Below are positions 5,813-32,109 of a DNA stretch of 35,968 nt, one piece after another (the stretch's first letter is position 1; the number at the start of each line of letters is the position of its first letter). Location of the stretch: the NCBI GenBank assembly GCA_001443395.1, contig LDXK01000005.1:1-35968 (forward strand), in the 5' to 3' direction. The position numbers were made by a program, and so were the translations under genes. The stretch comes from a candidate division WWE3 bacterium CSP1-7. GTDB lineage: Bacteria; Patescibacteriota; WWE3; 9FT-COMBO-53-11. A model generated the notes under the pieces. It saw nothing but the letters and a program-made list of their open reading frames with translations, was not told where the DNA came from and made no database searches.

Positions 5813-5840
5813 CTCCGGCCTCCTTCTCCTGAAGAGTAAG

Positions 5841-5890
5841 TGCTGTCCTAGCTAACACTAGGTTGCAATTCGGCAGATGTGCCGATGTGC
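5841..5890 (+). repeat. Hairpin element, alpha/TTGCAATT module
   Basis: TGCTGT-cctag..ctagg-TTGCAATT-cggca..tgccg-atgtgc; same layout as 8933-8985 on the minus strand. Confidence 0.7.
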
Positions 5891-5935
5891 TTTTATTCTA
5901 CCATGCTATAGGACTTAGGGCAAGGTAAGGGGGAC

Positions 5936-5966
5936 AAAAAAACCCTCCTCGGTTTCCCAAGAAGGG
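5936..5966 (-). terminator. Intrinsic terminator
   Basis: Minus strand cccttcttgggaaaccgaggagggttttttt. Confidence 0.75.
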
Positions 5967-5974
5967 ATAGTGAA

Positions 5975-6340
5975 CTATTGCAGCGATGTCGAGACAGCCG
6001 CTTCGCAAAAGAGTTCTCCCTCCACCGGAATCTCAATCGAACCAGAGACTCCGACGGGAAGATGGCTGCGCAGTTGAATCGCCGCCAGTGTGATCACTGC
6101 CCCCCAGTCCTCGTCCAGACGATCACGATCCTCGGTTTCGATCCGCACCCGGAAATCATCTCCCCTGGGAGAGACCCACTCCTCCCCAGATCCGTAGCGA
6201 ATGATCACATCTTCCGGCACCAATTTGTCGCCCGGAACCGACAGCGCCTCCGCCAAGATCCTGGGGAGAAACGCGACGAGCCGGTCCCGCAACCCGGTTT
6301 CTATCGCCCGATCGGCACAGTCCAGAATCACGAATAACAC
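5975..6340 (-). CDS. Hypothetical protein
   Basis: SD aggaggag before GTG 6340; followed by a terminator. Confidence 0.7.
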   Translation of the reverse strand: MLFVILDCADRAIETGLRDRLVAFLPRILAEALSVPGDKLVPEDVIIRYGSGEEWVSPRGDDFRVRIETEDRDRLDEDWGAVITLAAIQLRSHLPVGVSGSIEIPVEGELFCEAAVSTSLQ

Positions 6341-6396
6341 GTCTCCTCCTCTCATGTCTGAAACCGGTAGATTTTCTTAAATAGTAATCGCGAACG

Positions 6397-7809
6397 GTGA
6401 AAAAGTCAATCGGACGACTTTTGGACGGCTCGCTTTGCGAACCTAGCAATCTCGTTTCACTCGATTGTGCGAAAATGGCCTTGATGTACTTGACTAAATC
6501 TCGGGAGAGATTTTCGATTTCCTCTCTCCTTTCTCCAAAGTTTTTTTACTTTTTAGCGGTACTGGCCGTGGTTACGAGTGCTTTGAGCGTCTACACCAAT
6601 CTACGCTCCGAGAAAAATACTCCCAAGAACGAGCCCGTTACCGAGGAGATTGACTCGAATGAAAAAGCGCTGACCAAGGCCGAGGATAAAGTCCTTCCCA
6701 AAACTACCCCCCAGCCGGAACTGAATGTCGGGTCAGAACCAACGCCGACGCCGAAAACTAAACCCACCCCAAAACCCCTGCCGGCCAGCACCGTCACCCG
6801 AAAAGTCCTGGTGCTGGATTTCGATCCAATTGTTAACGGCCAACGGCTCCACAATCTTTTGGGTTGGGAAAATCCGCAAGCACTGGAGACGCAGTTCGTC
6901 GTTGATGTCAAAAGCGCCAGCGGGAACTATGTGAACTACCAAATTGTGGAACACCGTCAGCTGGACGATTTCCCCGTTCTCAACAGCGGATTTGATTTCG
7001 ACGGTGACAGCTTTCTCGACTGTTGGAATGACCTTGATCGTCCCGAATCTAAGTGCCATACGTCGGTGGGGGTGGATTACAACAAGCTTCTCACTGATTA
7101 CGGTTCAGACGTCTGCGCAGCGCGCAACAGCGGAGCAATCCATGAGGTATGGGTCTGGGGTGGCCCCTACTTCGGCTTCTACGAATCGCGCCTGGCCGGC
7201 CCGGGCGCTTTTGAGTACAACTCGCCCCCGCTCACGGGAACATCCTGCAACAAACAGCTGCCGATCATGGGGTTTAGCTACGAACGGGGGGTGGCGGAAA
7301 TGTTGGAGGATCTTGGCCACCGAACGGAAGCGGCGATGTCCCACACCTACGGGGGGGGGGCGGAAAACCGGACCAGCCACAACTGGGACCGGTTTGGTTT
7401 GGTCAAAGCCCAATCACCAGATTATGACTACAGTGGTTGCGGTTCGGTCCATTACGCTCCCAATTCCCTTTCCGACTATGACTGGAGCCGCTCCAGTCCG
7501 GCAAAAAGCACCTGCCAGGATTGGTTGAATTACCCTTACCTTACCGGGGCAACCCAGCAGATCGGCTGCTCCTCCTGGGGCTGTAGCGGTTACGGTTACC
7601 TCAAATGGTGGTTCTCTCACCTCCCCCACTTCACCGGCGTGGCTCCGGACGGCAAGTGGAACAACTGGTGGCGCTATGTTCTGGATTACAAAGAGGCGAC
7701 CGCCCTCAATCCCTGGCAGGAATTGCTATCCAGATTTCTGGTCTTTTGGGGAAACATCACCACCGCCCTTAGGAGTGGCTTCGGGTCAGCGGCTTTTGAG
7801 AAAAATTGA
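6397..7809 (+). CDS. Membrane-anchored secreted protein with a possible zincin-like domain; start uncertain (6397, 6475 or 6484)
   Basis: TM segment, Pro/Thr linker, globular domain with HEVWVWGGPYFGFYES and EMLEDLGHRTE, several Cys. Confidence 0.75.
   Translation: MKKSIGRLLDGSLCEPSNLVSLDCAKMALMYLTKSRERFSISSLLSPKFFYFLAVLAVVTSALSVYTNLRSEKNTPKNEPVTEEIDSNEKALTKAEDKVLPKTTPQPELNVGSEPTPTPKTKPTPKPLPASTVTRKVLVLDFDPIVNGQRLHNLLGWENPQALETQFVVDVKSASGNYVNYQIVEHRQLDDFPVLNSGFDFDGDSFLDCWNDLDRPESKCHTSVGVDYNKLLTDYGSDVCAARNSGAIHEVWVWGGPYFGFYESRLAGPGAFEYNSPPLTGTSCNKQLPIMGFSYERGVAEMLEDLGHRTEAAMSHTYGGGAENRTSHNWDRFGLVKAQSPDYDYSGCGSVHYAPNSLSDYDWSRSSPAKSTCQDWLNYPYLTGATQQIGCSSWGCSGYGYLKWWFSHLPHFTGVAPDGKWNNWWRYVLDYKEATALNPWQELLSRFLVFWGNITTALRSGFGSAAFEKN
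6421..6470 (-). repeat. Hairpin element, alpha+beta modules
   Basis: Reverse complement cgagattgctaggttcgcaaagcgagccgtccaa matches 9064-9097 at 30/34. Confidence 0.85.
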
Positions 7810-8558: not shown

Positions 8559-8634
8559 TGGAGCCGACACCCGGGGTCGAACCGGGGACCTCATTCTTAC
8601 CAAGAATGCGCTCTGCCAACTGAGCTATGTCGGC
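8559..8634 (-). tRNA. tRNA-Thr (GGT)
   Basis: Canonical 76-nt cloverleaf, anticodon loop ttGGTaa, CCA end. Confidence 0.96.
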
Positions 8635-8639
8635 ACTGT

Positions 8640-8726
8640 TGGTGCTAGGGGAGGGATTCGAACCCCCGTAGCCACAAGGGCACCTCGTCTACAGCGAGGC
8701 GCATTTGACCGCTCTGCCACCCTAGC
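8640..8726 (-). tRNA. tRNA-Tyr (GTA)
   Basis: Long variable arm, anticodon loop ctGTAga, CCA end. Confidence 0.96.
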
Positions 8727-8733
8727 AAACCTC

Positions 8734-8808
8734 TGGAGCCGGTGACAGGGATTGAACCTGTGACAACCTGTTTACAAAACAGGTGCTCTACCGCTGAGCT
8801 ACACCGGC
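8734..8808 (-). tRNA. tRNA-Thr (TGT)
   Basis: CCTGT-ttTGTaa-ACAGG anticodon arm, CCA end. Confidence 0.96.
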
Positions 8809-8810
8809 CT

Positions 8811-8992
8811 GCGGTTTATTTCGCGCTAGCGAAAGTAGCGATCTCCGATCGCGTCTAAAACAGCTGCTCTGCCGTTGTATCGTCCTCGCTAACGCTCGAA
8901 CGACCGGTAGTGCTCCTTGCGTGTGCACTACCTAGCTACCTCGACACGAACTGCCGAATTGCAACTCGCCACAGGCGAGACAGCACCTCGGC
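8811..8992 (-). repeat. Cluster of about four hairpin elements interleaved with tRNA-Thr-like 5' fragments
   Basis: Beta modules at 8835-8858 and 8902-8935, alpha-type at 8876-8903 and 8933-8985. Interspersed minus-strand pieces GCCGAGGT, AGCT, CAACGGCAGAGCAGCTGTTTT, TAAACCGC. Confidence 0.6.
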
Positions 8993-9038
8993 GAATATTA
9001 ACATTTTAACACGGGAATACTGCTAAAATGCCTCTAAG

Positions 9039-9593
9039 ATGCCCAATCACAACCAAGCACCAGCGAGGTTGCTAGGTTCGCCCAGCGAGCCGTCGAATGT
9101 TCGCCAGCAGATAATCCAAACCGCCATTGAGAGCATCGAGACCAAGATGCGGGCGCGCCGCTCCTGGATCGAAAGGCTGGAGGACCGGATTGCGGCGGTC
9201 TTCGGAACGACCGAGTTCCTCTTTCTTAATATTGCCTGGTTTGGGACCTGGCTGTTGCTCAACTCGGGGGTAATACCCGGGGTGAAGCCGTTTGATCCCT
9301 TCCCGCACATCTTTCTGACCACAACGGTTTCGCTAGAAGCCATCATTCTGGCCATCTTTGTCCTCATCACCCAAAACCGACAGGAACGGATTAATAGCCT
9401 GCGGGAGGAGATGGGACTGCAGATCGACACCATCACCGAACAGGAAAATACAAAAATTCTCAAAATCCTGGCCGAAATCCTGAAAAAAATGGGGGTGGAT
9501 GTCACCCATGACCCTGAACTCAAGCAGATGCTGGAGCCTCTCAACCAGGAGGAGATTGAACGTCAACTCGAGAATCAGCTTAAGAGGAAATAG
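9039..9593 (+). CDS. DUF1003-family membrane protein with a repeat-derived N-terminal segment
   Basis: FDPFPHIFLTTTVSLEAIILAIFVLITQNRQ signature; TGCTAAAAT extended -10 just upstream of the ATG. Confidence 0.85.
   Translation: MPNHNQAPARLLGSPSEPSNVRQQIIQTAIESIETKMRARRSWIERLEDRIAAVFGTTEFLFLNIAWFGTWLLLNSGVIPGVKPFDPFPHIFLTTTVSLEAIILAIFVLITQNRQERINSLREEMGLQIDTITEQENTKILKILAEILKKMGVDVTHDPELKQMLEPLNQEEIERQLENQLKRK
9050..9097 (+). repeat. 48-nt alpha+beta hairpin element inside the DUF1003 ORF
   Basis: 44/48 identical to 15794-15841. Confidence 0.92.
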
Positions 9594-9606
9594 GTAATAA
9601 GGTAAA

Positions 9607-9651
9607 TGGGCGGCCCAACGTTGTCGGACCTAGCTTTTTGCTGAGGCAAAA
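9607..9651 (-). repeat. Hairpin element (small alpha hairpin plus beta module)
   Basis: Minus strand ttttgc-ctca-gcaaaa-a-GCTA-GGTCCGAC-aac-GTTGGGCC-GCCCA. Confidence 0.65.
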
Positions 9652-9807
9652 AAAGAAGCCCACCCGGGCGTCGGCTCTTTGAGCTGAGCAAATCCCACGT
9701 AAAGAAAAGTGGGTCCCCGCATCCCCGGTCCAAGGACCGAGGAGATTGAGGGTCCCTGCTAAGCAAGTTTGCGGAATTGCTCACCGGCCAAACGAACCAG
9801 GCAGGCC
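9648..9807 (-). ncRNA. Rod-shaped ~160-nt RNA, candidate 6S RNA
   Basis: TGCTATATT -10 about 7 nt upstream. Closing stem GGCCTGCCTGG/CCGGGTGGGCT, TGAGCAATTCC/GGATTTGCTCA helix, central bubble, terminal TCCTCGGTCC/GGACCGGGGA stem, ends in a T tract. Confidence 0.6.
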
Positions 9808-9848
9808 AACCCGAATATAGCACATCTGCGGTGGGTGTTTCTCTGGAT

Positions 9849-10460
9849 TTAGATGCCTCTAAAGAAGAGTACCGCCGAGACCACGAAGAGAACCGCCCAC
9901 ACCCTCCGGTCCCACTTCAACACCTTCGCCCCGTCCAGAATCCCCAACGGCAGAAGATTAAAAAGAGCCAGCCAGGCGTTGATTTGATAACTGGAAGCGA
10001 CCAGGTCAATTCCACGGGTTTCATAGAGCGGCAGAACCAGGGAGACCCCGGCGAGGGAGAGCAATCCAAAGAACACCGCCAGAATAATGTTGACCACCGC
10101 TCCGGCCGCGGCGATCTTCCCGTAGGTGTCGACGCGCGTCACTCCTCCGATCACCACCGCCCCGGGGGCGGCGAAGACAAAACCGGTGAAAGAAAGGAGA
10201 ACCGCAAGAAGCAGGAACAGATCATCGGCGCGAAATTCGGCAAAAAGATGGTAACGCTGGGCCAGGAACTTGTGACCCAAGACCTCGTGCGCGATGAAGG
10301 AAAAACCAACGGTGATGGAGTAGATCGCAAAGGCCCGGATCAGAACCGGCAGGCCCAGGGTGGAGATGGATTCGAATCCCAGAATCGCGATCGCAATCGC
10401 CAGCGAAACCGCCACCCAGGCCTTGATCAAATCGCGAATTTCTTCGGGAGAAAAATTCAT
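9849..10460 (-). CDS. Site-2 protease / peptidase M50 family membrane protein
   Basis: AHEVLGH, IAAAGAVVN, FNLLPLGILDG motifs; multiple TM segments. Confidence 0.88.
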   Translation of the reverse strand: MNFSPEEIRDLIKAWVAVSLAIAIAILGFESISTLGLPVLIRAFAIYSITVGFSFIAHEVLGHKFLAQRYHLFAEFRADDLFLLLAVLLSFTGFVFAAPGAVVIGGVTRVDTYGKIAAAGAVVNIILAVFFGLLSLAGVSLVLPLYETRGIDLVASSYQINAWLALFNLLPLGILDGAKVLKWDRRVWAVLFVVSAVLFFRGI

Positions 10461-10525
10461 CAGTACAGCTTAGCGCAGAAGAACCTTCTGAAGCAATAAA
10501 CACAGTATGTTAAACTCTTCGAGTC

Positions 10526-14573: not shown

Positions 14574-14604
14574 TTACTTAGGAGACTTAGGTTACTTGGG
14601 TTTC
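14574..14604 (+). repeat. 9-mer tandem array (NNNCTTAGG), left flank of the four-helix-bundle gene
   Basis: ttacttagg agacttagg ttacttggg tttc. Confidence 0.8.
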
Positions 14605-14948
14605 AAGGAGTTAGCTAAACCGAAGGTGAGAGAACCGACGTTGCTTCGCAAAATTTCCAGACTTTCGTACTCTTTCGGATTGAGATAATCTAGATCTAGC
14701 GCTAACTCAAAATAAACCTCTACTTCCGCTAGAGACCCGCGCGATATGGCAATGAACTGGGCAAACTCTTTCTTTGAATTTCGAGCCTGGCCTTCAACCA
14801 GATTCGCTAAAACAGAAACAGCGGCTCGCCGTAGTTGAGAGGTAAGACCGAACTGTTCGGAATTAGGAAATTTTTCTGACAAGCGGTAGGTCAGGATTAC
14901 TAGCTCGTATGCTTTTTGAGCCGCCTTAAGTTGTTTGTAACTTTTCAC
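14592..14948 (-). CDS. Four helix bundle protein (23S-IVS protein / Avd-like family)
   Basis: FPNSEQFGLTSQLRRAAVSVLANLVEG, F..ISRGSLAEV; probable GTG start at 14948 after gggag. Confidence 0.92.
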   Translation of the reverse strand: MKSYKQLKAAQKAYELVILTYRLSEKFPNSEQFGLTSQLRRAAVSVLANLVEGQARNSKKEFAQFIAISRGSLAEVEVYFELALDLDYLNPKEYESLEILRSNVGSLTFGLANSLKPK

Positions 14949-15019
14949 TGACTCCCTAGCATAAACCGAGAAAGCCACAAAATCAATCTAGGGGCGGGCG
15001 GAACCGCTACCTCGGGTTT

Positions 15020-15057: not shown

Positions 15058-15489
15058 TTACTTCAGTTCGACCTTCGCACCGGCATCCTCCAGCTTCTTC
15101 TTGGCGGATTCAGCGTCCTCTTTCTTCGCTCCCTCTAGGATCGCTTTTCCGGGATTATCGGCGAGACCCTTGGCCTCCGCCAGTCCCAGGTTTTGGTTGA
15201 TCTCGCGCAGAGCCTTGATCACCGAAATCTTGTTTGCCCCGGAATCCGCTAGAACAACATCGTAGGCGGCCTTCTCTTCCGCCGGAGCGGCTTCCCCTCC
15301 CGCCGGAACAGCACCGGCCGCAGGAGCGGCCATCGCTACCGGAGCCGAAGAGACACCAAACTTCTCTTCCAGAGCTTTAACCAATTCGTTCAACTCCAGA
15401 ACCGAAAGCTCCTCCACCGTTTTCAAAATATCCGCGGTTTTCTTGGAGAGCTTAATTTCCTTTTTTTCTTCTTGTTTTTCTTCAGCCAT
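15058..15489 (-). CDS. rplL: 50S ribosomal protein L7/L12
   Basis: [48 protein letters not shown]. Confidence 0.97.
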
Positions 15490-16054
15490 TATCGACACCC
15501 CCTCTCGTTTTTGAAATCTGACTCAGAGCCATCACCAGCTTTCGCTGTGACGCTGATAAAACATACGCTAGTTTGTATATCGGGGAGAAAAGTTGCGAGA
15601 CCAAAATGGACTGCAGGACGGTTTTTCCGGGGAGCATCGCCAGTTCGGCAAATCCCTCGGCGGTCATTGGTTTTTTCTCAAAAAAGCCGAACTTAACTTC
15701 TCCCTTGGCCTTTTCCTTTAGATAAGAAACCATTACTTTGATGCTCTCGATGGGATCGGCGGAGCGGGAGAAAAGAGCCGCGGTCGGACCCTTCAACCGA
15801 ACACCAGCGAGGTTGCTAGGTTCGTCCAGCGAGCCGTCTAATCCTCCGTCTTTGAGTTCAGCTTTTTCCAAAGCCAAGCCAAGAAGGGTGTTCTTGACTA
15901 CGCGCAGGTCGGCTCCAAGAACCGCCAATCTCTTGCGGAGTTCAGACATTTCGACTACCGTTAATCCGGAGTAATCGGAAAACATCACCGCTCCTGACTC
16001 GGCGGCTTCCTTCGCTAGTTTCTCGACTTGGTTTATCTTTTCTTCGTTAACCAT
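15482..16054 (-). CDS. rplJ: 50S ribosomal protein L10 carrying a repeat-derived in-frame insertion
   Basis: [27 protein letters not shown]; operon position. Confidence 0.96.
15794..15841 (+). repeat. 48-nt alpha+beta hairpin element inside rplJ
   Basis: 44/48 identical to 9050-9097; read on the rplJ strand as [16 protein letters not shown]. Confidence 0.92.
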
Positions 16055-16059
16055 CGCAA

Positions 16060-16157
16060 TAAAAAACCTCGGCTGTCCCGAGGAATTTAATCAACTAAGT
16101 AACTTAGCTATTCCTCGGTGGGATGATTAAGTCTTGCGACCCCCACTGTCTTCGGAC
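16060..16157 (-). promoter_or_regulatory. L10 leader (rplJL autoregulatory RNA) with attenuator-like hairpin
   Basis: Minus strand ccgaagacagtggggg...ttaat..cccaccgagg fits the L10-leader layout, then cctcgg/ccgagg plus T tract just before rplJ. Confidence 0.75.
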
Positions 16158-16174
16158 ACTTCAATATACCTGAT

Positions 16175-16984
16175 TTACTTCAAACTTTCAAGATCAACTC
16201 TGACCGACGGCCCCATCGTCGGTGCCAGAAAGACCGACAGAATGAAGTTTCCGGTGATCTTCGCCGGTTTGAGGCGGTTGACCTCTGCCACCACCGCTTT
16301 GAGATTGGCGATGAGATCTTCGTCCGGAGTGGAAACCTTCCCGATCGAAACGTGCACGATCGAAGAGACCTCGGTTCTGATTTCGATTCTCCCCTGCTTA
16401 AACTGTCCCACCAGATCGGCCGGATTATCCGTCACCGTTCCCGCTTTGGGAGTAGGCATCAGCCCCTTCGGACCAAGAAAACGAGCGATTCGGGCTAGCT
16501 TCGCCATAAAAAGCGGGGTGGATACGACGGCGTCGACATCGGGAAGTTTTCCCTGCGCGATGCTTTCGATTAGGGCGTCGTCCCCGATCGCATCGGCGCC
16601 CGCTTCCTGAGCTTTCTTGGCCACCTCTCCCTCCGCAAAGACTAAAACCTTCACGGTCTTTCCAGTGCTGTGGGGAAGTGCCAAGAAACTGCGGAGCTGA
16701 TGCTCCGGTTTGTCTCTTTCGAGATCCAGATTGATGTGGGCGTCAATTGCGGCGTCAAACTCGGTCGTAGAAGCCCCTTTCACCAGTTTTACCGCCTCCC
16801 CCAAAGGATAAGCGCGCGGCTCCATTTTCTTCTTGGCTTCCTGATACTTCTTTCCTCGAACCTTTTTGGGACGATGGGAAACGGATTTCTTGACCTTTTT
16901 CGACGGCTCTTTTTTGTCCTCCGGCGAATTTGCTTTGGGAGTTTCTTCTTCAGCTGGGATTACTTTTGGTTTTCTTCCGCCCAT
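16175..16984 (-). CDS. rplA: 50S ribosomal protein L1 with a Lys-rich N-terminal extension
   Basis: LPHSTGK, LGPKGLMPTPKAGTVT, VHVSIGK, TMGPSV. Confidence 0.97.
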   Translation of the reverse strand: MGGRKPKVIPAEEETPKANSPEDKKEPSKKVKKSVSHRPKKVRGKKYQEAKKKMEPRAYPLGEAVKLVKGASTTEFDAAIDAHINLDLERDKPEHQLRSFLALPHSTGKTVKVLVFAEGEVAKKAQEAGADAIGDDALIESIAQGKLPDVDAVVSTPLFMAKLARIARFLGPKGLMPTPKAGTVTDNPADLVGQFKQGRIEIRTEVSSIVHVSIGKVSTPDEDLIANLKAVVAEVNRLKPAKITGNFILSVFLAPTMGPSVRVDLESLK

Positions 16985-19218: not shown

Positions 19219-20544
19219 TCAGAGATATCTTTCGAGCTCTTTAATGCGGTCGCGCAGCAGGGCGGCTCGCTCAAACTCGCGGTTGCCGGTCACTTCTTTC
19301 AGCTCTTCTTCCAAGTGAGAGACCATCTTCTTGATCTCTTCTTTTGGCAAACCAGGGAGAGAGGCGTCGGTGTGCATCCGCAACTCCTCGTCCTCGCTCT
19401 GTGCCAACTCCTCCACCTTTCCGCTTCTCTGCCAAGCAAAGCCGGTCGTGATGATCGAGTAGTAGAGTTCTTGTGCCTTTCTCTTACTTTCTTCTGCAGC
19501 GTCGGGGGTTGCCAATACCGCCTCCTTCAGTTCAAACGCCCCTCTTTCGATCATCTCCAACGACCACCAGGGCCGGGCCGAGGCCCACCAGAACTGGTCG
19601 GAATGGATTGCCCGATCCAGCATCTCCCGGGCCTTCCCCGGATCTTTCGAGTCTCGAACCGCCTTAATCGCCAGCTCGGTCAGCTCCCACTGCATCTTAT
19701 GGATCTCATTATCCGGGTCATCCCAACGCGCAAAGGGTACCTTTTTCTCCAGATCCTTCTCCATCAGCGCCCAAGTGGAAGGCCGCGGTTCCACCCTCTC
19801 CACCTGCGGGAACTTCTCCGGAAGTTCAGAGATGAGAACGGTCGGGACGGATTCGAGGGAGAGAAGCTCCATCAACGCCCGATCCATTCCGGGGCGATGA
19901 TGACCAAAAGTCTCCCCGTCCATTCCGGTTAAAAGATATTCGTTCTTTTGCAACCGGTCCCCCAGCACATCTAAAAAGAGCTTCCCCGTTCCCAGCTGGC
20001 CGGAGAGAATCTTGTAAGAGGTCTCTCGCTCCCGGAAGAATAGGGTGACTCCGGTTTCCTGCTCCTGGTAAATCCGGTCGTACTGGACCTTCCCGGGACA
20101 ACTCAATTCCTCGGCGATGATCCAGGAAAAGCCCATCTCCTTCGCCGCTTTTGCGACCACCGCATCGTAAGCCATCTCGGGAGGAAAGAAACCTTGGGGC
20201 TGATATTCTCCGAAGTATTTCTTAATGGTCAGGGCATTGAGCTCGATCTGGCGCTTGATTTCATCTTCGGGGATTTTCGGCAAGAGGGGGTGGTACTTGG
20301 CCGAACCGGTCAGTTCAATCTGCTTTTTATCAAGTAATTGCCCCACCATCTCGATCACATCTTTGTGGCCAAATTCTTCCCAAAGATCCAACAGAACCCC
20401 GTTGATATTGAAAGTGATCCGCGCAGACGGATGATCCAACAGCCCTTTCAGCACCGGCCGATAGGCCTCGGTGGTGATCCGGTCCACCCAAACTCTTTTC
20501 TGGGTCGGCGGCTGGTAGAAGTGTAAGAAGTTTGCCCAAAGCAT
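19219..20544 (-). CDS. Glycoside hydrolase family 57 protein with a C-terminal UVR coiled coil
   Basis: LHFYQPP, YHPLLP, GFFPPEMAY, DGETFGHH, SDQFWW; tail EFERAALLRDRIKELE. Confidence 0.9.
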   Translation of the reverse strand: MLWANFLHFYQPPTQKRVWVDRITTEAYRPVLKGLLDHPSARITFNINGVLLDLWEEFGHKDVIEMVGQLLDKKQIELTGSAKYHPLLPKIPEDEIKRQIELNALTIKKYFGEYQPQGFFPPEMAYDAVVAKAAKEMGFSWIIAEELSCPGKVQYDRIYQEQETGVTLFFRERETSYKILSGQLGTGKLFLDVLGDRLQKNEYLLTGMDGETFGHHRPGMDRALMELLSLESVPTVLISELPEKFPQVERVEPRPSTWALMEKDLEKKVPFARWDDPDNEIHKMQWELTELAIKAVRDSKDPGKAREMLDRAIHSDQFWWASARPWWSLEMIERGAFELKEAVLATPDAAEESKRKAQELYYSIITTGFAWQRSGKVEELAQSEDEELRMHTDASLPGLPKEEIKKMVSHLEEELKEVTGNREFERAALLRDRIKELERYL

Positions 20545-20606
20545 TGCTACTGAAGTATAACCAATTTTGCACTAAACTGATATAAAAGAAAGTATCCGAT
20601 AGTTCC

Positions 20607-23191: not shown

Positions 23192-24418
23192 TTAACCAAT
23201 AATCGGCTCGGTACCGTAGAGCTTAATCCCTTCCGTCGTAATTTCCTGATAAAGCTCCTTGGCGCGGGTCGCCTCCGATTCCGAAATTTCGGGCGTGGCT
23301 AAAATCGCTTTCAGCAGGAGATCCGCCCCACGTTCGACCATCGCCGGATGCCAGTGGGGATTGTGGGAGGCCCACCAGAACTGGTCGGAGTGCAGGCCCC
23401 TATCCAGAAGATCCCGTGCCTTGAGCCATTTCCGCTGGTCGGGGGTAAGATGGTCCCTTACCTTTCCTCCCAGCATCTTCGGAGGGATCTGGTGCACATA
23501 CCCCTCAACCACGGTCAGAGCGAGGCGATAGAGCTCCCACTGCTTTGGATGCAGAGGACTGCCGGGATGATCCCAGCGAGGGTAGATCGCCCCTTTCTTA
23601 CACTCGGCGTGGTTCGCCGCCCAGGTGGACTCCATCGGATCGTTCTCTTCTCCCTTGGGATAACGAGAGACCAGTTCGGAAATCGTGACGCTCTCGAATT
23701 TTCCGTACATTCCCTCCAAGATCTCGAAACCGTCCTTGTGGTGGTGGCCAAAAGTCTCTCCGTCCAAGGCGGTGAGGATAAAATCTGAATCCTTTAGCTC
23801 TTTCTTCGCCAACTCCTCAAACTCCGTGGCGTTTTGGACCTGTTTGAAGGCAATCGCCAAGGAGAGTTTCCGATTGCGGAAGAGAACCGCGAGATTCAGC
23901 TTGTCCAACCGGTAGACCTTATCAAAACTCAAGGGCTGGACCGAGGAGCAGGCATCCTCCACCAGAATCCATTCATATCCCAACTCCGCGACGGCGTCGC
24001 CGACCTTCTTGGAGTAGGCCATCTCGGGAGGAAAAAAACCCCGCGGTTTGTAGACCCCCCCGAAAAACTCCCTGTTAATCTCCTCGTTCAGCTGCACCTG
24101 TCGGCTGATTTCGGAGAAGGGAATCCGGGAGAGAAGGGGATGGTAGGCCGCCGAACCGGTCAACTCCACCTGTCCTTTCTCCGCTAGGCGCCGGAGACCA
24201 GCAAGGACATCTTCGTATCCGTGCTCCGCCAGCTGGGAGGTGAGAGAAGCATTGATATTGATGGTGGTTTTGGCGTGGGGGTTTCTCTCCAGAAAAGAAA
24301 CCAGCGGGACGTAGGATTCTTCGGCAATCTTCTTAAGGACCGCCGGAAGCTGGGTCGGGGGCTGGTAGAGGTGGAGGAAAGGGGCCCAGACCAGTGGTGA
24401 GCTCGTCGAATCCATCAT
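23192..24418 (-). CDS. Glycoside hydrolase family 57 protein
   Basis: LHLYQPP, YHPLL, GFFPPEMAY, DGETFGHH, SDQFWW; paralog of 19219-20544. Confidence 0.9.
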   Translation of the reverse strand: MMDSTSSPLVWAPFLHLYQPPTQLPAVLKKIAEESYVPLVSFLERNPHAKTTININASLTSQLAEHGYEDVLAGLRRLAEKGQVELTGSAAYHPLLSRIPFSEISRQVQLNEEINREFFGGVYKPRGFFPPEMAYSKKVGDAVAELGYEWILVEDACSSVQPLSFDKVYRLDKLNLAVLFRNRKLSLAIAFKQVQNATEFEELAKKELKDSDFILTALDGETFGHHHKDGFEILEGMYGKFESVTISELVSRYPKGEENDPMESTWAANHAECKKGAIYPRWDHPGSPLHPKQWELYRLALTVVEGYVHQIPPKMLGGKVRDHLTPDQRKWLKARDLLDRGLHSDQFWWASHNPHWHPAMVERGADLLLKAILATPEISESEATRAKELYQEITTEGIKLYGTEPIIG

Positions 24419-27651: not shown

Positions 27652-28494
27652 ATGAATGCCAAGCTGATGTTTGCCCTGGTTCTTGCGTTTGCGCTGGCCG
27701 GGTGCAACGGGACGGTTCCGCCGGTCACGGCCGAACCCACCGCGGTAATCCCGACGGAGGTTCCCCCGACCGCAGTTCCCTCCCCGACTCCCACTCTTGA
27801 GCCGACGACGATCCCGACCGAGGTCCCGCCTACCCCGACCTTGGAACCGTCCCCCACTCCCACGGTGACACCGATTCCGTCGGTCTGGGAGATTGCTGAG
27901 AAGATGTTAGCGGAGTGCTCTCTAGTTTTTGACATGACACAGACGCCCCCATCTTGGATGAGAGCGGACTTCTCCTACGGCGAAGCGTCCCGGTGGTATA
28001 TCGAGGAGTTTTTCTGGCGCCAATGGTGGCGGGGAAATCCTACCCCCAGCCCAGACGAATATCCAACGACCGCTGGCCCGAACACGTTCTCGCCAACCTT
28101 GGCTCCTTTGGGAGAGTACGAGCTGGAGATCGCGGTTCAGATTATCGCCGTCCATCCGGAATTCGTCCAGGTAGGCCCAAGGGGATTGCGACTTTGGAGT
28201 TTCGCAATCGGTACCCAGATGTTGCGCAACAACGGCAAGTACCACAATCCCTTCGGCGAGGTCGACCAGCTCTTTGTTACAGCACCTTCCGGAGATTTCT
28301 TGCCGGACGAATACGAGAACAGCTTTTGCCCGTTCTCCTTTCTCTTCACCGAGTTTCCGCCGGAGGAGAACGGAGATGGGGATGGAATTCTTGTTGGGAG
28401 GGCCTATCTCTTCTACGAGGTAGGTGGGACCGATCCTTTCAAGCTCGATGGCGAGTTGCGTGAAGTCATCTTTACCTTCCCGCCCGTTCCGTAA
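27652..28494 (+). CDS. Putative lipoprotein with a Pro/Thr linker (paralog 1)
   Basis: LAGC lipobox, PT-rich repeats, C-terminus shared with 29190-29861; SD aaggag. Confidence 0.85.
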   Translation: MNAKLMFALVLAFALAGCNGTVPPVTAEPTAVIPTEVPPTAVPSPTPTLEPTTIPTEVPPTPTLEPSPTPTVTPIPSVWEIAEKMLAECSLVFDMTQTPPSWMRADFSYGEASRWYIEEFFWRQWWRGNPTPSPDEYPTTAGPNTFSPTLAPLGEYELEIAVQIIAVHPEFVQVGPRGLRLWSFAIGTQMLRNNGKYHNPFGEVDQLFVTAPSGDFLPDEYENSFCPFSFLFTEFPPEENGDGDGILVGRAYLFYEVGGTDPFKLDGELREVIFTFPPVP

Positions 28495-28501
28495 GTTCGT
28501 G

Positions 28502-28537
28502 AGCCGCTCAGCTTTCTCAAGCCGAGCGGCTTTTTTT
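28502..28537 (+). terminator. Intrinsic terminator (duplicated at 29872-29906)
   Basis: agccgctc/gagcggct stem plus T tract. Confidence 0.75.
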
Positions 28538-28553
28538 GTTACCATCAAATTGA

Positions 28554-29189: not shown

Positions 29190-29861
29190 ATGAACCGCAA
29201 GCTGATCTTCACCCTGTTCGCGCTTGTTTTGACCGGGCTACTGACGGCCTGCAATGGGACGGTTCCGGTGACGGTCGAATCCACCGCGGTGATCCCGACG
29301 GAGGTTCTCCCGACCGCAGTTCCCTTCCCGACTCCCACTCTTGAGCCGACGACGATCCCGACGGAGGTTCCTACTCCTACAGCCACGCCAGATCCGGTGA
29401 TGGCGATCGTTTGGGATATTGCCCAGCAGATGCTGGCGGAGTGCACCGGGGCGTACACCATCTATGATTTTAAGCCTGAGTACTCGATAGAAGCTCAGCA
29501 GGCTTACATGGATCAACTGTGGACACGCGTCTCGGAGCACCCTGAGATCTGGAGAGAGGTGGGTGGGGGTTCTTCCCAGGTAGTGTCTTTACTCTCCGAA
29601 ACATGGGTGCTTGCCAACGATGGCGTGAATCCCAACCCGTTCGCTCTGGCAGAGGACCGAAGCGAATCACCGTCTGATTCCGAGATGATGTTCTGCGAAG
29701 GGTATGTTCTGACCTACGACGGAACAATCGCAGAAAACAAGGACGGGGACGGCATCTTGGTCGGAGAAGCCTACCTCTTCTATGAGGTCGGTGGAACCCA
29801 ACCGTACGTGCTGGATGGGGAGCTGAAGGAAGTCATCTTTACCTTCCCGCCCGTTCCGTAG
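29190..29861 (+). CDS. Putative lipoprotein with a Pro/Thr linker (paralog 2)
   Basis: LTAC lipobox, PT-rich linker nearly identical in DNA to paralog 1, same EVIFTFPPVP end. Confidence 0.85.
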   Translation: MNRKLIFTLFALVLTGLLTACNGTVPVTVESTAVIPTEVLPTAVPFPTPTLEPTTIPTEVPTPTATPDPVMAIVWDIAQQMLAECTGAYTIYDFKPEYSIEAQQAYMDQLWTRVSEHPEIWREVGGGSSQVVSLLSETWVLANDGVNPNPFALAEDRSESPSDSEMMFCEGYVLTYDGTIAENKDGDGILVGEAYLFYEVGGTQPYVLDGELKEVIFTFPPVP

Positions 29862-29871
29862 TGTGTTAGTG

Positions 29872-29906
29872 AGCCGCTCAGCTACCAAGCCGAGCGGCTT
29901 TTTTTT
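29872..29906 (+). terminator. Intrinsic terminator
   Basis: agccgctc/gagcggct stem plus T tract. Confidence 0.75.
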
Positions 29907-29941
29907 GCACCAGCAAAACTAGGTTCGCGGAGCGATCCGTC
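29903..29941 (+). repeat. Hairpin element, alpha+beta modules
   Basis: ttttgc-acca-gcaaaa-CTA-GGTTCGC-gga-GCGATCC-GTC. Confidence 0.8.
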
Positions 29942-29985: not shown

Positions 29986-32109
29986 ATGTCCCGATTATCC
30001 TTGCCGAAAATCATCCGGATTTTGTCTCTCTTTGCAATTACTCTTTTCATCACATTTCTTTCGCAAAGCAAACCATCCACTACTTACGCTGCCACATGTT
30101 ATTCGGGGGAATGCAAATCTCCCAAGTACGCTTGTCAGAACAACACAATGTGTTGCACCGGCGGGGGGTGTCCAAGCTGGGTTTGCGTACAAAACAACTG
30201 CAAGTTCAAGATCGGAAACGGGTGCTACGGACCGGAGTATTGTGTGGCATGGGGCAACGTTTATTGGGACTCAACATGCACTCAATATTGGGACTCAACC
30301 TGTACATGGCACAACGGATATTACCATCGACACTGTCCTACTTGTAACGTCCACTATCATGCCGGGTATTGGACCGGCTGTTATAAATGGAACGGTTGTT
30401 GGAAACGAGATTGTATAGATAAGACCCGCGACCGTTGCGGCGATGTTTACAACACCGGAGGAACCTGCGGCTGGTGCACCGGCAATCCCCCCGATGATGG
30501 CGGGGGTCCCGGCGGCGGCTGCAGTTGGGGAGCCAACGTCGCTTCCGGCAGCTGCACTCAAGCCAATGGGTTGGAAGGAAACTACTATCGTGACAACCCC
30601 GTCGGGGAACCGCGCTTCGACGGCGGACTAAAGATGCAGCGCAACGATTCCACCGTCGACTTCGACTGGGGCTCCGGTTCTCCCCAGTGCACTCCAGTTG
30701 ACAACGACAACTTTTCGGTTAACTGGACCGGCTATGTCAGCATTCCTGCCAGCGGGACTTGGACCTTTTACATCCGGAGCAATGATGGAATGATGGTAGA
30801 CGTTGAAACCACTCCCGGCAACTGGAACACCATTGTTACCGATTGGTCCGATCACAGCGCCCGCGAGCGCTCCGGTACCGTGGCTCTTAACTCCGGCTGG
30901 TATGGCATCCGCGTTTGGTACTACGATAACAACGGCAACGCCGAAGCCAAACTCTCCTACTCCGGTCCGGGTTTAGCCAAAACGATCATTCCTTCGGCGA
31001 ATATGCGGACCTGCACGGTCCCGACCAGTACGGTGCAGGGATCGAAGGTCCTGATGCCCGGCAACACGCCGGCCGCCCCCGCCTCCGGACAGAGCGTTTT
31101 TCTGGACGGCGGCTCGGAAACCACCAGCAATCCTTACTCCCTAACCAGCACCGCCGGCAGCCACACGGTCTCCGTGACCGCTCCGGGCGGATACTTCGTT
31201 CAATCCACTCTCTGCTACAACCGAACCGATTGCCACACCACCGCTTGCGTGAACGGCGACGCGAGTTGTCCGGTCGCGGGTGCCGTCTCCAACGGCAACT
31301 CTCGGTCAGTCAACGTTCCTTCGGAAGGATACGCCGATCTCAATTGGCACTACACCCTGATAAACTCTTGGGTCCAGGCGCTGGGAGGAAACATCTTCGC
31401 CAACCACTTGGTGGGATTACGGACTGCTCCCACCGGTTTGTTCAACGCCCGCTGGGGAATCTTTGGGCGGGGTTCGGTCACCGGTTCTTCCCAGGAGAAC
31501 TGGCGCGCCCAATACTATCCCGAAAGAAATTTTGATCTGACTCAAAACACGCCGGTCAAAGCTCCGGATTACGATACGCTCTTTAAACGGTTTGGGGGCG
31601 GGGCCGCCACTTACTCCGGCCCGACTCTCCCCAACGCCGACGGGGTTTATCTCATTTCCGGCAATAAAACCGTCAACGGAGTCTTCAACCAGGCGGCCGG
31701 AGCGAGCACCCTGGTCTTCGTCGATGGAAATCTGACGATCGACGCCGAGATTCGGACAGCGGTGAACGGCACGCTGGCTTTCATCGTTTCCGGAAACATC
31801 AACTTCTCGAAGGACTTTGCGGGAGGCGGGCCGGCCGATGACTTCGCGGGAGGGGTATACATTGCCGAGGGTCGGATCAACACCGCCTATGACAAGTCCG
31901 CTCCTGACGAAGTTACTCGTCAGTTGGTTGTGGAAGGAGCACTGATCTCACTGAAAGACACCATCTCTCTCGACCGGAACCTCTCTCTGGCCGACAACAC
32001 CACCACCCCCGCCGAAAAGATCGATCTCACCGGCAAATACTACGTTCTCCTGAAATCGGTCCTCGGCCGGCCGAAGTTCTTCTACCGAGAGGTACCGGCC
32101 GGGTTCTGA
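29986..32109 (+). CDS. Secreted protein: Cys-rich N-terminus, PA14 domain, beta-rich C-terminal domain
   Basis: Signal/TM; GLEGNYY...VDFDWGSGSP...DNFSVNWTGY...SNDG...Y.IRVWYY PA14 pattern; LVFVDGNLTI...FIVSGNI...LVVEGALI tail. Confidence 0.85.
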   Translation: MSRLSLPKIIRILSLFAITLFITFLSQSKPSTTYAATCYSGECKSPKYACQNNTMCCTGGGCPSWVCVQNNCKFKIGNGCYGPEYCVAWGNVYWDSTCTQYWDSTCTWHNGYYHRHCPTCNVHYHAGYWTGCYKWNGCWKRDCIDKTRDRCGDVYNTGGTCGWCTGNPPDDGGGPGGGCSWGANVASGSCTQANGLEGNYYRDNPVGEPRFDGGLKMQRNDSTVDFDWGSGSPQCTPVDNDNFSVNWTGYVSIPASGTWTFYIRSNDGMMVDVETTPGNWNTIVTDWSDHSARERSGTVALNSGWYGIRVWYYDNNGNAEAKLSYSGPGLAKTIIPSANMRTCTVPTSTVQGSKVLMPGNTPAAPASGQSVFLDGGSETTSNPYSLTSTAGSHTVSVTAPGGYFVQSTLCYNRTDCHTTACVNGDASCPVAGAVSNGNSRSVNVPSEGYADLNWHYTLINSWVQALGGNIFANHLVGLRTAPTGLFNARWGIFGRGSVTGSSQENWRAQYYPERNFDLTQNTPVKAPDYDTLFKRFGGGAATYSGPTLPNADGVYLISGNKTVNGVFNQAAGASTLVFVDGNLTIDAEIRTAVNGTLAFIVSGNINFSKDFAGGGPADDFAGGVYIAEGRINTAYDKSAPDEVTRQLVVEGALISLKDTISLDRNLSLADNTTTPAEKIDLTGKYYVLLKSVLGRPKFFYREVPAGF

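Follow-up and report, generated by a model that had tools for sequence, protein, structure and literature searches.

The gene for ribosomal protein L10 (rplJ) in the candidate division WWE3 bacterium CSP1-7 carries a 45-nt insert that is one unit of a palindromic repeat that has expanded in this genus; with high probability, the unit was copied into rplJ within the lineage of this genome and has no role in L10. We analyzed a window of 35,968 nt, which is one entire contig of a seven-contig, 572-kb genome assembly (G000, 80% complete), together with related genomes that include nine members of the same family (G001 to G009). The initial annotation of the window had proposed that a mobile repeat is inserted in L10. 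That proposal holds up, in that the insert belongs to a family with 34 dispersed copies in G000, and copies are present in some congeners and absent from others at rplJ, at a gene encoding a DUF1003 protein, at rplM, rplA, and rplD, and at three intergenic sites.

The insert in rplJ and its empty site

The rplJ open reading frame (ORF; positions 15482 to 16054, minus strand) encodes a 190-residue protein that matches the L10 profiles PF00466 (69.3 bits, cutoff 22.8) and NCBIfam L10 (NF000955; 119 bits, cutoff 85), and both these profiles and the predicted fold described below identify the product as L10. It is the only L10 match in G000. The inserted unit, at positions 15794 to 15838, appears as a 45-nt gap when the DNA of the gene is aligned with that of G002, G001, G008, and G005. 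It corresponds to 15 codons (codons and residues 73 to 87) rather than to the 48 nt and 16 codons initially annotated, and the reading frame of rplJ is preserved exactly across it. The unit lies on the plus strand, antisense to rplJ, and the gene thus reads the strand opposite to the repeat's usual orientation. Four of the six frames of the unit are open, two in each orientation. The boundary is ambiguous by one base, with 15793 to 15837 fitting as well as 15794 to 15838; therefore, any target-site duplication at rplJ is at most 1 nt long.

The insert is exactly one unit of the repeat, consisting of a 22-nt variable hairpin followed by a 23-nt core, both on the plus strand. The variable hairpin (15794 to 15815), detected by a scan for hairpins upstream of the core, has arms CAACC (15794 to 15798) and GGTTG (15811 to 15815) around a 12-nt loop; these arms recur in the copy at 9050 described below. 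The core (15816 to 15838) has the form CTAGG..CCGTC, with a stem of 15819 to 15825 paired with 15829 to 15835 and a CCA triloop at 15826 to 15828, and it matches the covariance model of the family at 33 bits. The word palindrome in the initial annotation is apt insofar as the repeat forms hairpins, but there are two adjacent hairpins rather than one.

We searched 60 related genomes for L10 and obtained a match in 55, of which 17 were aligned with the L10 of G000. The spacing from the NTL to the GPT motif is 31 residues in G000, as initially annotated, 16 residues in G002, G001, G008, G005, G007, G006, and G004, and 17 residues in G009. Eight of the nine relatives in the family therefore have a short loop. 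The exception is the congener G003, in which the spacing is 28 residues through an unrelated 12-residue insert; because the DNA of this insert has no second copy in G003 or its congeners, we did not count it as a member of the repeat family. The closest relative by rplJ is G002 (87% protein identity), and it provides the empty site that the initial annotation had expected an alignment of relatives to uncover: on the plus strand of the window, GACCCT is followed directly by CTAATTC, where G000 has 45 extra bases in between. The insert was seen in one species-level genome only. As separate observations, rplJ of G003 (L011, 1486 to 2085) also encodes 10 residues, SAKGGPASGG, after FGFF, and rplJ of G004 (L018) encodes a protein with a long N-terminal extension and 17 additional residues inserted behind residue 66.

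Misassembly, which the initial annotation had named as a way in which its proposal could fail, is extremely improbable. The repeat could in principle have induced a chimera during assembly or binning that put 45 nt into rplJ, and the contigs of one public sequencing run (X18) do break at the repeat, with loose ends that run into the flanks of a second copy at 9050. However, such a break is expected of a two-copy sequence, and Logan contigs from three other runs cross the whole insert without gaps and with 0 or 1 difference: X17 (15617 to 16200, 0 differences), X19 (15487 to 16200, 1 difference), and X1. The first two were not flagged as possible sources of G000, whereas X1 was. A total of 20 runs were listed as holding at least half of the sampled words of 15400 to 16200, and the exact preservation of the frame also argues against a chimera. 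Because the comparison is with assembled contigs, a rare insert-free allele would be compatible with it.

To place the insert in the protein, we used an AlphaFold2 model of L10 built on the 17-row alignment, with a mean predicted local distance difference test score (pLDDT) of 80. In the model, the insert lies between a helix (residues 55 to 64) and a strand (residues 91 to 95) of the N-terminal domain. Residues 65 to 90 are coil and residues 70 to 81 have a pLDDT of <50, in contrast to the flanking blocks of 10 residues, which score approximately 89 to 95. Foldseek matched the model to Thermotoga L10 (1ZAX and 1ZAV, E of approximately 5e-13; 5.4e-13 for 1ZAX_A) and to ribosome-bound L10 N-terminal domains, the best of which had target-normalized template modeling (TM) scores of 0.82 to 0.89. 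In the sequence alignment to 1ZAV, gaps totaling 13 residues fall in the insert stretch. A low-confidence coil between confident elements, combined with an intact match to the fold, supports the prediction that the insert extends a flexible loop and leaves the L10 fold intact. The model thus agrees with the loop position given in the initial annotation; the surface exposure given with it would hold if the loop is oriented as discussed below.

The sister copy and other coding copies

The initial annotation reported 44 of 48 bases identical between 15794 to 15841 and 9050 to 9097. We reproduced this value, and a repeat finder extended the pair to 49 nt at 92% identity. A 37-nt piece of the repeat, sought with three or fewer mismatches, occurs at only these two sites in the window, compared to an expectation of 0.00 from 100 shuffles. 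Within the genome as a whole, the copy at 9050 is the nearest relative of the rplJ copy (E of 1.3e-14 versus 2.1e-5 for the next), and the two are on the same strand, 6.7 kb apart. Among the copies listed, the triloop CCA is confined to these two.

Although the copy at 9050 had been taken as intergenic, it is in fact an in-frame 45-nt insert (9050 to 9094, plus strand, sense; core at 9072 to 9094) that encodes NQAPARLLGSPSEPS near the start of a DUF1003 gene (9039 to 9593, plus strand; PF06210, 88 bits). The N-terminus of the DUF1003 protein reads MPNH-NQAPARLLGSPSEPSNVRQ-QIIQTAIES in G000 and G002, which is 15 residues longer than the insert-free versions in G001 (MPNH-TGRR-QIIQTAIES) and G003 (MPNQ-HGRR-LTIQTAIES). 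The DUF1003 copy, with identical flanks, is therefore common to G000 and G002, whereas the rplJ copy is not in G002. The rplJ and DUF1003 copies differ at 3 of 45 positions, and each difference alters a residue of L10 (G to D, A to V, and W to R); these substitutions could reflect later smoothing or chance.

The surroundings of the DUF1003 copy are unusual in their similarity. Over approximately 1.5 kb that includes tRNA genes, the DUF1003 gene, and the sequence beyond it, window positions 8586 to 10100 are identical to G002:C7:1-1515 except for the triloop at 9082 to 9084 (CCA versus GTG) and one other base, while the remainder of the contig shared by G000 and G002 is 77 to 90% identical. Three clustered changes thus sit in the triloop within a stretch that is otherwise nearly identical. 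Recent exchange between the lineages, or a chimeric contig start in G002, is a possible source of this near-identity.

Three further copies extend ribosomal proteins. The C-terminal tail of L13 (rplM) reads ...GKVK-MDGSANAEPSIL-KK in G000 and G002, and the insert is absent from G001, G003, G008, G007, and G005. In G003, L1 (rplA) has the N-terminal extension NRASERLLGSRSEPS, which is absent from all five of the other genomes compared, and L4 (rplD) has the C-terminal extension NRASARLPGSRSEPS, which is absent from G000. Thus, an in-frame insertion of the repeat with an insert-free orthologue, the behavior of a Rickettsia palindromic element (RPE), was found at rplJ, at the DUF1003 gene, at rplM, and at rplA and rplD of G003. 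At three intergenic sites, copies are present in G002 and absent from G000, with clean boundaries; one of these is an 88-nt direct dimer. Taken together, the presence/absence differences are evidence that the family has moved recently, as far as can be judged from comparing genomes. In a separate comparison, a direct dimer at G002:C18:2209-2273 replaces the last codons of the upstream ORF relative to G000 C1 (approximately 61200) and supplies its stop codon (...VDRRI-stop versus ...VDHHL-stop).

Each of the five coding copies is read in one of the two frames whose product is a small polar peptide (GS..EPS). Given that two frames are open in either orientation, chance alone would give this outcome approximately 1 time in 32, although the sample is small. 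It might be taken to suggest co-option, in which the 15 extra residues lend a lineage-specific function to L10, which sits at the base of the L7/L12 stalk, and the three L10-changing substitutions relative to the DUF1003 copy and the independent 12-residue insert in the same loop of G003 point in the same direction. We consider co-option quite improbable. The insert is present in one species-level genome and is predicted to be disordered, three nonsynonymous changes out of three often arise by chance, and the sequence of the G003 insert is unrelated and nonrepetitive.

Structure and distribution of the repeat family

The conserved core of the family is CTAGG-stem-loop-stem-CCGTC. A strict search with the 23-nt core found 12 copies in G000, and a scan that required TAGG, then a hairpin with 6 bp or more, and finally CCGT found 32 matches, compared to 1 in the reversed genome. 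Two of the 32 (C1 233331 and C2 10495) were judged to be chance matches and were dropped before flank statistics were calculated on 30 copies. When 40 copies from five genomes were aligned, none varied in TAGG or CCGTC, and conservation of the C before TAGG was at least 90%. Of the cells of the 7-bp helix, 98.2% are paired, five of the seven pairs change on both sides, and the covariation score was reached by none of 500 shuffles; however, because 20 of the 40 aligned rows come from the scan that requires pairing, the pairing and covariation figures are inflated. One helix pair is U.G in 35 of the 40 copies.

A covariance model of the core detected 34 copies in G000, 22 in G001, 57 in G002, and 77 in G003. 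In six other genera of the family, the counts were 0, 2, 3, 4, 5, and 12, and there were no matches in 51 genomes of 17 other families. An Rfam scan of eight copy-bearing loci (24,315 bases, E values up to 1) yielded matches to tRNAs and to the L10 leader, and no Rfam family corresponded to the motif.

The layout of two adjacent hairpins, with the variable hairpin preceding the core, is not peculiar to rplJ. In 23 of the 30 G000 copies, the core is adjoined on its 5' side by a variable hairpin with 5 bp or more, compared to 20% of random sites. In 14 of the 30, the bases at the foot of the core (5 to 8 nt just 5' of the hairpin) can also pair with the 3' flank, compared to 10% of random sites. 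Variable hairpins are common to the members of subfamilies, such as those with CAATCGAGC...GCGAGATTG, CATTTTG...CAAAATG, or ATTCGGC...GCCGAAT, and a G002 copy that is missing from the window near position 10,500 has the same 22+23 layout. In the CATTTT subfamily (G000 C1 57385, 75792, 79721, 126661, and 185850, and C2 79177), a neighboring gene reads away from the repeat, and its AAAATG start-codon region doubles as the outer arm of the variable hairpin. Since the AAAATG start of rpsI is conserved in relatives, part of that hairpin is native sequence that is mirrored by the repeat arm.

A crude ORF call placed 18 of the 32 scan matches between genes, many of them 5 to 30 nt from a gene end. 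Several of the assignments to the inside of ORFs were judged to be spurious or to involve overextended ORFs; for example, the copy at C1 81984 is intergenic, between rpsK and rpsD. Three copies overlap the last codons of genes. Between codirectional genes, 5 copies are in the sense orientation and 9 are antisense. The rplJ-sense strand of the insert has an ordinary fold energy (z of -0.2, with 71 of 200 shuffles folding as well), and two hairpins are predicted for the motif strand of the DUF1003 copy (z of -3.0). Mixed orientation and an ordinary rplJ-sense fold do not fit a cis-acting RNA of fixed orientation but do fit a repeat that acts at the level of DNA.

These data bear on the alternative offered in the initial annotation, that the segment acts as an mRNA structure, and more broadly on the idea that the segment is kept inside rplJ for a role as nucleic acid, be it in mRNA structure, as an antisense RNA signal, or as a DNA hairpin to which a protein binds. 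The conserved core hairpin, its covariation, and the strand-specific G.U pair are what such a function would predict, and many intergenic copies lie 5 to 30 nt from gene ends, like repetitive extragenic palindromic (REP) elements acting on transcripts, as one survey describes them (PMC3733652). Nevertheless, we regard a nucleic-acid function in rplJ as highly improbable: the sense strand folds no better than its shuffles, which leaves the mRNA structure in particular without support, no single RNA orientation is kept among the intergenic copies, relatives lack the element at the rplJ site, and the motif had no Rfam match in the eight loci searched.

Two other copies of the core in the window are intergenic. 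The first, at 6424 to 6446 on the minus strand, has its variable hairpin at 6447 to 6468. This copy bounds, on one side, a segment of approximately 580 nt (approximately 5835 to 6465) that is missing from G002 (C24) and G003 (C13), which have approximately 60 nt in its place; the segment holds an ORF of 125 codons (5975 to 6355, minus strand) whose product has no Pfam or NCBIfam match. The second copy, at 29919 to 29941 on the plus strand, directly follows a terminator-like hairpin and T-run and is upstream of a PA14-domain gene (29986 to 32109). Two sets of diverged direct repeats, 72 to 93% identical, are also present in the window. One pairs 19580 to 20546 with 23367 to 24396 (approximately 3.85 kb apart), and the other pairs 27721 to 28549 with 29265 to 29917 (approximately 1.4 to 1.5 kb apart) and adjoins the PA14-domain gene; the pattern suggests tandem paralogous genes. 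The context of rplJ itself is ordinary. The gene is flanked by rplL and, upstream, by an L10 leader RNA (16052 to 16173, minus strand; RF00557, 63.4 bits against a gathering score of 44) that lies outside the element, with rplA beyond the leader. Directly downstream of rplL is a gene for a 23S rRNA-intervening-sequence protein or bAvd-like four-helix protein (14592 to 14978, minus strand; PF05635, 114.7 bits).

Origin of the rplJ copy and relation to known repeats

Given that G002 has the DUF1003 copy and lacks the rplJ copy, that CCA is unique to the two G000 copies among those listed, and that within the genome the copy at 9050 is the one nearest to the rplJ copy, we infer that the rplJ copy arose within the G000 lineage, with the DUF1003 copy or a lost sibling of it as its source. 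The copying would have followed the split of this lineage from its closest sequenced relative, and its probable source would be the DUF1003 copy 6.7 kb away or the lost sibling. A unit comprising the variable hairpin, CTA, the 7-bp stem with its triloop, and GTC would then have landed between what are now codons 72 and 88. Because the frame in use has no stop codon, translation of L10 would proceed without interruption along the antisense strand of the repeat, and the insertion would persist because the L10 loop tolerates extra flexible, polar sequence.

Several points weigh against parts of this account. Of the 45 positions, 3 differ between the two copies even though G000 and G002 are almost identical across the source region, so the true donor may be a copy that we have not seen. 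The inflation of the pairing figures described above reduces their weight. Translation through the insert and a working L10 are presumed from an intact, single-copy, essential gene, and the runs listed as holding the region include no RNA run. Similarly, it is by reasoning from the model that the loop would point away from the rRNA and L11 and toward solvent on the ribosome.

The mechanism of copying that we prefer, although only tentatively, is action in trans by the genome's single HUH/Y1 transposase, resembling REP-associated tyrosine transposases (RAYTs) and acting on a single-stranded hairpin. One Y1 (IS200-like) gene was found in each of G000, G001, and G003. The G000 gene (C1:146028-146675) encodes 215 amino acids with HFH and YIHLNP motifs and matches PF01797 (33.8 bits, cutoff 23); its score against NCBIfam REP_Tyr_transpos (56.9 bits) is below the cutoff of 80. 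In its unpaired, invariant tags, its conserved wobble, and the pairing of hairpin foot with flank, the repeat resembles substrates of HUH enzymes. Other results count against this mechanism. No copies of the repeat occur within approximately 1.5 kb of the Y1 genes in G000, G001, and G003, and no Y1 gene was found in the 83%-complete G002 assembly despite its 57 copies. Y1 genes are present in 34 of 61 related genomes irrespective of the repeat, such that repeat-bearing genomes are not distinct, and the target-site duplication at rplJ is at most 1 nt. The G000 Y1 gene is preceded by two tandem copies of another hairpin, AGGGGTTGAACCCCT (C1:145881-145920), which is unrelated to the repeat; this hairpin is not dispersed, with one other similar site (one mismatch) on contig C6.

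For the rplJ event itself, we give about the same probability to the Y1 route and to a process, either template switching or gene conversion, that acts between hairpins. In this transposase-free alternative, 45 nt would have been transferred from the DUF1003 locus to rplJ by a template switch during replication or by short-patch gene conversion between hairpin-forming sequences that share a strand. The two copies lie on one strand and 6.7 kb apart, there is no target-site duplication at rplJ, and no transposase gene flanked by REPs was found. Moreover, C-AAT just after the unit is common to both loci and is already present in the empty site of G002, so a short homology was available for a switch. 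The family as a whole is harder to account for in this way, because 22 to 77 copies per genome at nonorthologous sites, dimers included, exceed the usual result of sporadic switching, and the two-hairpin layout in 23 of 30 copies, the invariant unpaired tags, and the G.U wobble in 35 of 40 copies are as expected for a protein recognition site. As an account of the rplJ copy that needs no transposase, we hold template switching or gene conversion to be possible but doubtful.

In IS200/IS605 elements such as IS608, a 4-nt guide next to the foot of a subterminal hairpin pairs with the cleavage or target site. The present repeat is similar in that 5 to 8 nt just 5' of the core can pair with a segment farther upstream (23 of 30 copies; 20% of random sites) and with the sequence that adjoins the core on its 3' side (14 of 30; 10% of random sites). 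However, this likeness comes from pairing in the sequence, compared to the 4-nt guides of IS608, the segments that pair are longer and vary more, and there is no transposase gene inside the element. It is conceivable, if rather unlikely, that the repeats are minimal single-hairpin HUH/Y1 substrates in which the bases at the hairpin foot serve as a guide that pairs with the flanking site, giving each subfamily its own address, and that the family is still active in these 0.5- to 0.7-Mb genomes.

RPEs are selfish DNA found inside protein-coding genes, and RPE-1 is about 100 to 150 bp long. The initial annotation drew an analogy to these elements, and the analogy stands for behavior: the present family is likewise a dispersed palindromic repeat in a small, reduced genome, with unbroken in-frame copies in known proteins at termini or loops, and its copies are present or absent between close relatives. 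It is not meant to extend to family membership. The present repeat occurs in a different phylum (Patescibacteria), is a 45-nt unit of two hairpins with different end tags, and has hosts that include four ribosomal proteins. The comparison concerns behavior and published descriptions of RPEs rather than their sequences.

A second comparison is with REPs, for which we follow Di Nocera et al. 2013 (PMC3733652). There, REPs are sorted into GTAG- and CGTC-tagged superfamilies and are described as having G.T pairs and as lying close to the 3' ends of genes, with some inside ORFs. GTAG REPs have an unpaired terminal GTAG, variants of which keep the first G, next to a G+C-rich stem of 5 to 13 bp with a short loop. 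CGTC REPs have a stem of 8 to 9 bp that starts with two A-T pairs, a loop of 4 to 5 nt, and a CCA tail; they are described as lacking an adjacent transposase, and RPE-4 and RPE-6 of R. conorii are CGTC-type REPs inside ORFs.

The present family resembles the GTAG REPs and RAYT systems of that source and of Bertels and Rainey in its unpaired 4-nt tag beside a G+C-rich stem, its short loop, and its G.T pairs. It also has subfamilies with compensating stem changes, copies that are mostly intergenic near gene 3' ends with some intragenic, and one RAYT-like Y1 gene per genome. All the stem features of GTAG REPs (5 to 13 bp, short loop, G.T pairs, and compensating changes) were found here. However, the tag is CTAG (C in at least 90% of the 40 aligned copies; G in 1 of the 12 strict G000 copies), a second invariant tag, CCGTC, lies opposite, no copies of the repeat flank the Y1 gene in the manner of a REPtron, and the units are mostly single or in direct tandem rather than in inverted doublets. 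Similarly, the family shares with the CGTC REPs described there an invariant CGTC beside the stem (CCGTC in 40 of 40 copies), the lack of a dedicated neighboring transposase, and intragenic members, but its stem is usually 7 bp and starts G-C, G-C in 40 of 40 copies, its loop is mostly a triloop, and its opposite end is CTA.

Two other classes also do not accommodate the family. REP doublets forming hairpins (REPINs) consist of inverted pairs, whereas G000 copies are single or in direct tandem (C2 103299/103344), and the only nearby inverted pair in G000 is approximately 210 nt apart (C2 54843 and 55077). The repeat is not a MITE (miniature inverted-repeat transposable element) either, given that the possible duplication is at most 1 nt and the unit ends, CAACC and CCGTC, are not inverted repeats. 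A literature search found no description of such repeats in Patescibacteria or the candidate phyla radiation. We conclude that a Patescibacteria genus harbors a REP/RPE-like repeat family that falls outside both published REP tag classes, as those classes are described in the source above. Such insertions have precedents in Rickettsia and other bacteria; what is new here is the family, together with its tags, its two-hairpin unit, and the phylum that hosts it.

Among free-standing bacterial genomes, those of Patescibacteria are some of the smallest and most streamlined. Despite this streamlining, genomes of this genus carry a selfish hairpin repeat every 9 to 25 kb, and the repeat exposes a gap in the classification of REPs. 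Its lineage-specific insertion in rplJ provides a dated marker for strain tracking. Short in-frame extensions in metagenome-assembled proteins may likewise be repeat insertions, and dispersed copies should be checked for before such extensions are read as adaptive. The coding copies indicate how much inserted sequence essential, conserved proteins tolerate in a loop of L10 and in the tails of L13, L1, and L4. If the guide model were correct, the surfaces of these ribosomal proteins would be in the process of being rewritten with the same short polar peptide, which would provide raw material for lineage-specific features of the ribosome in Patescibacteria.

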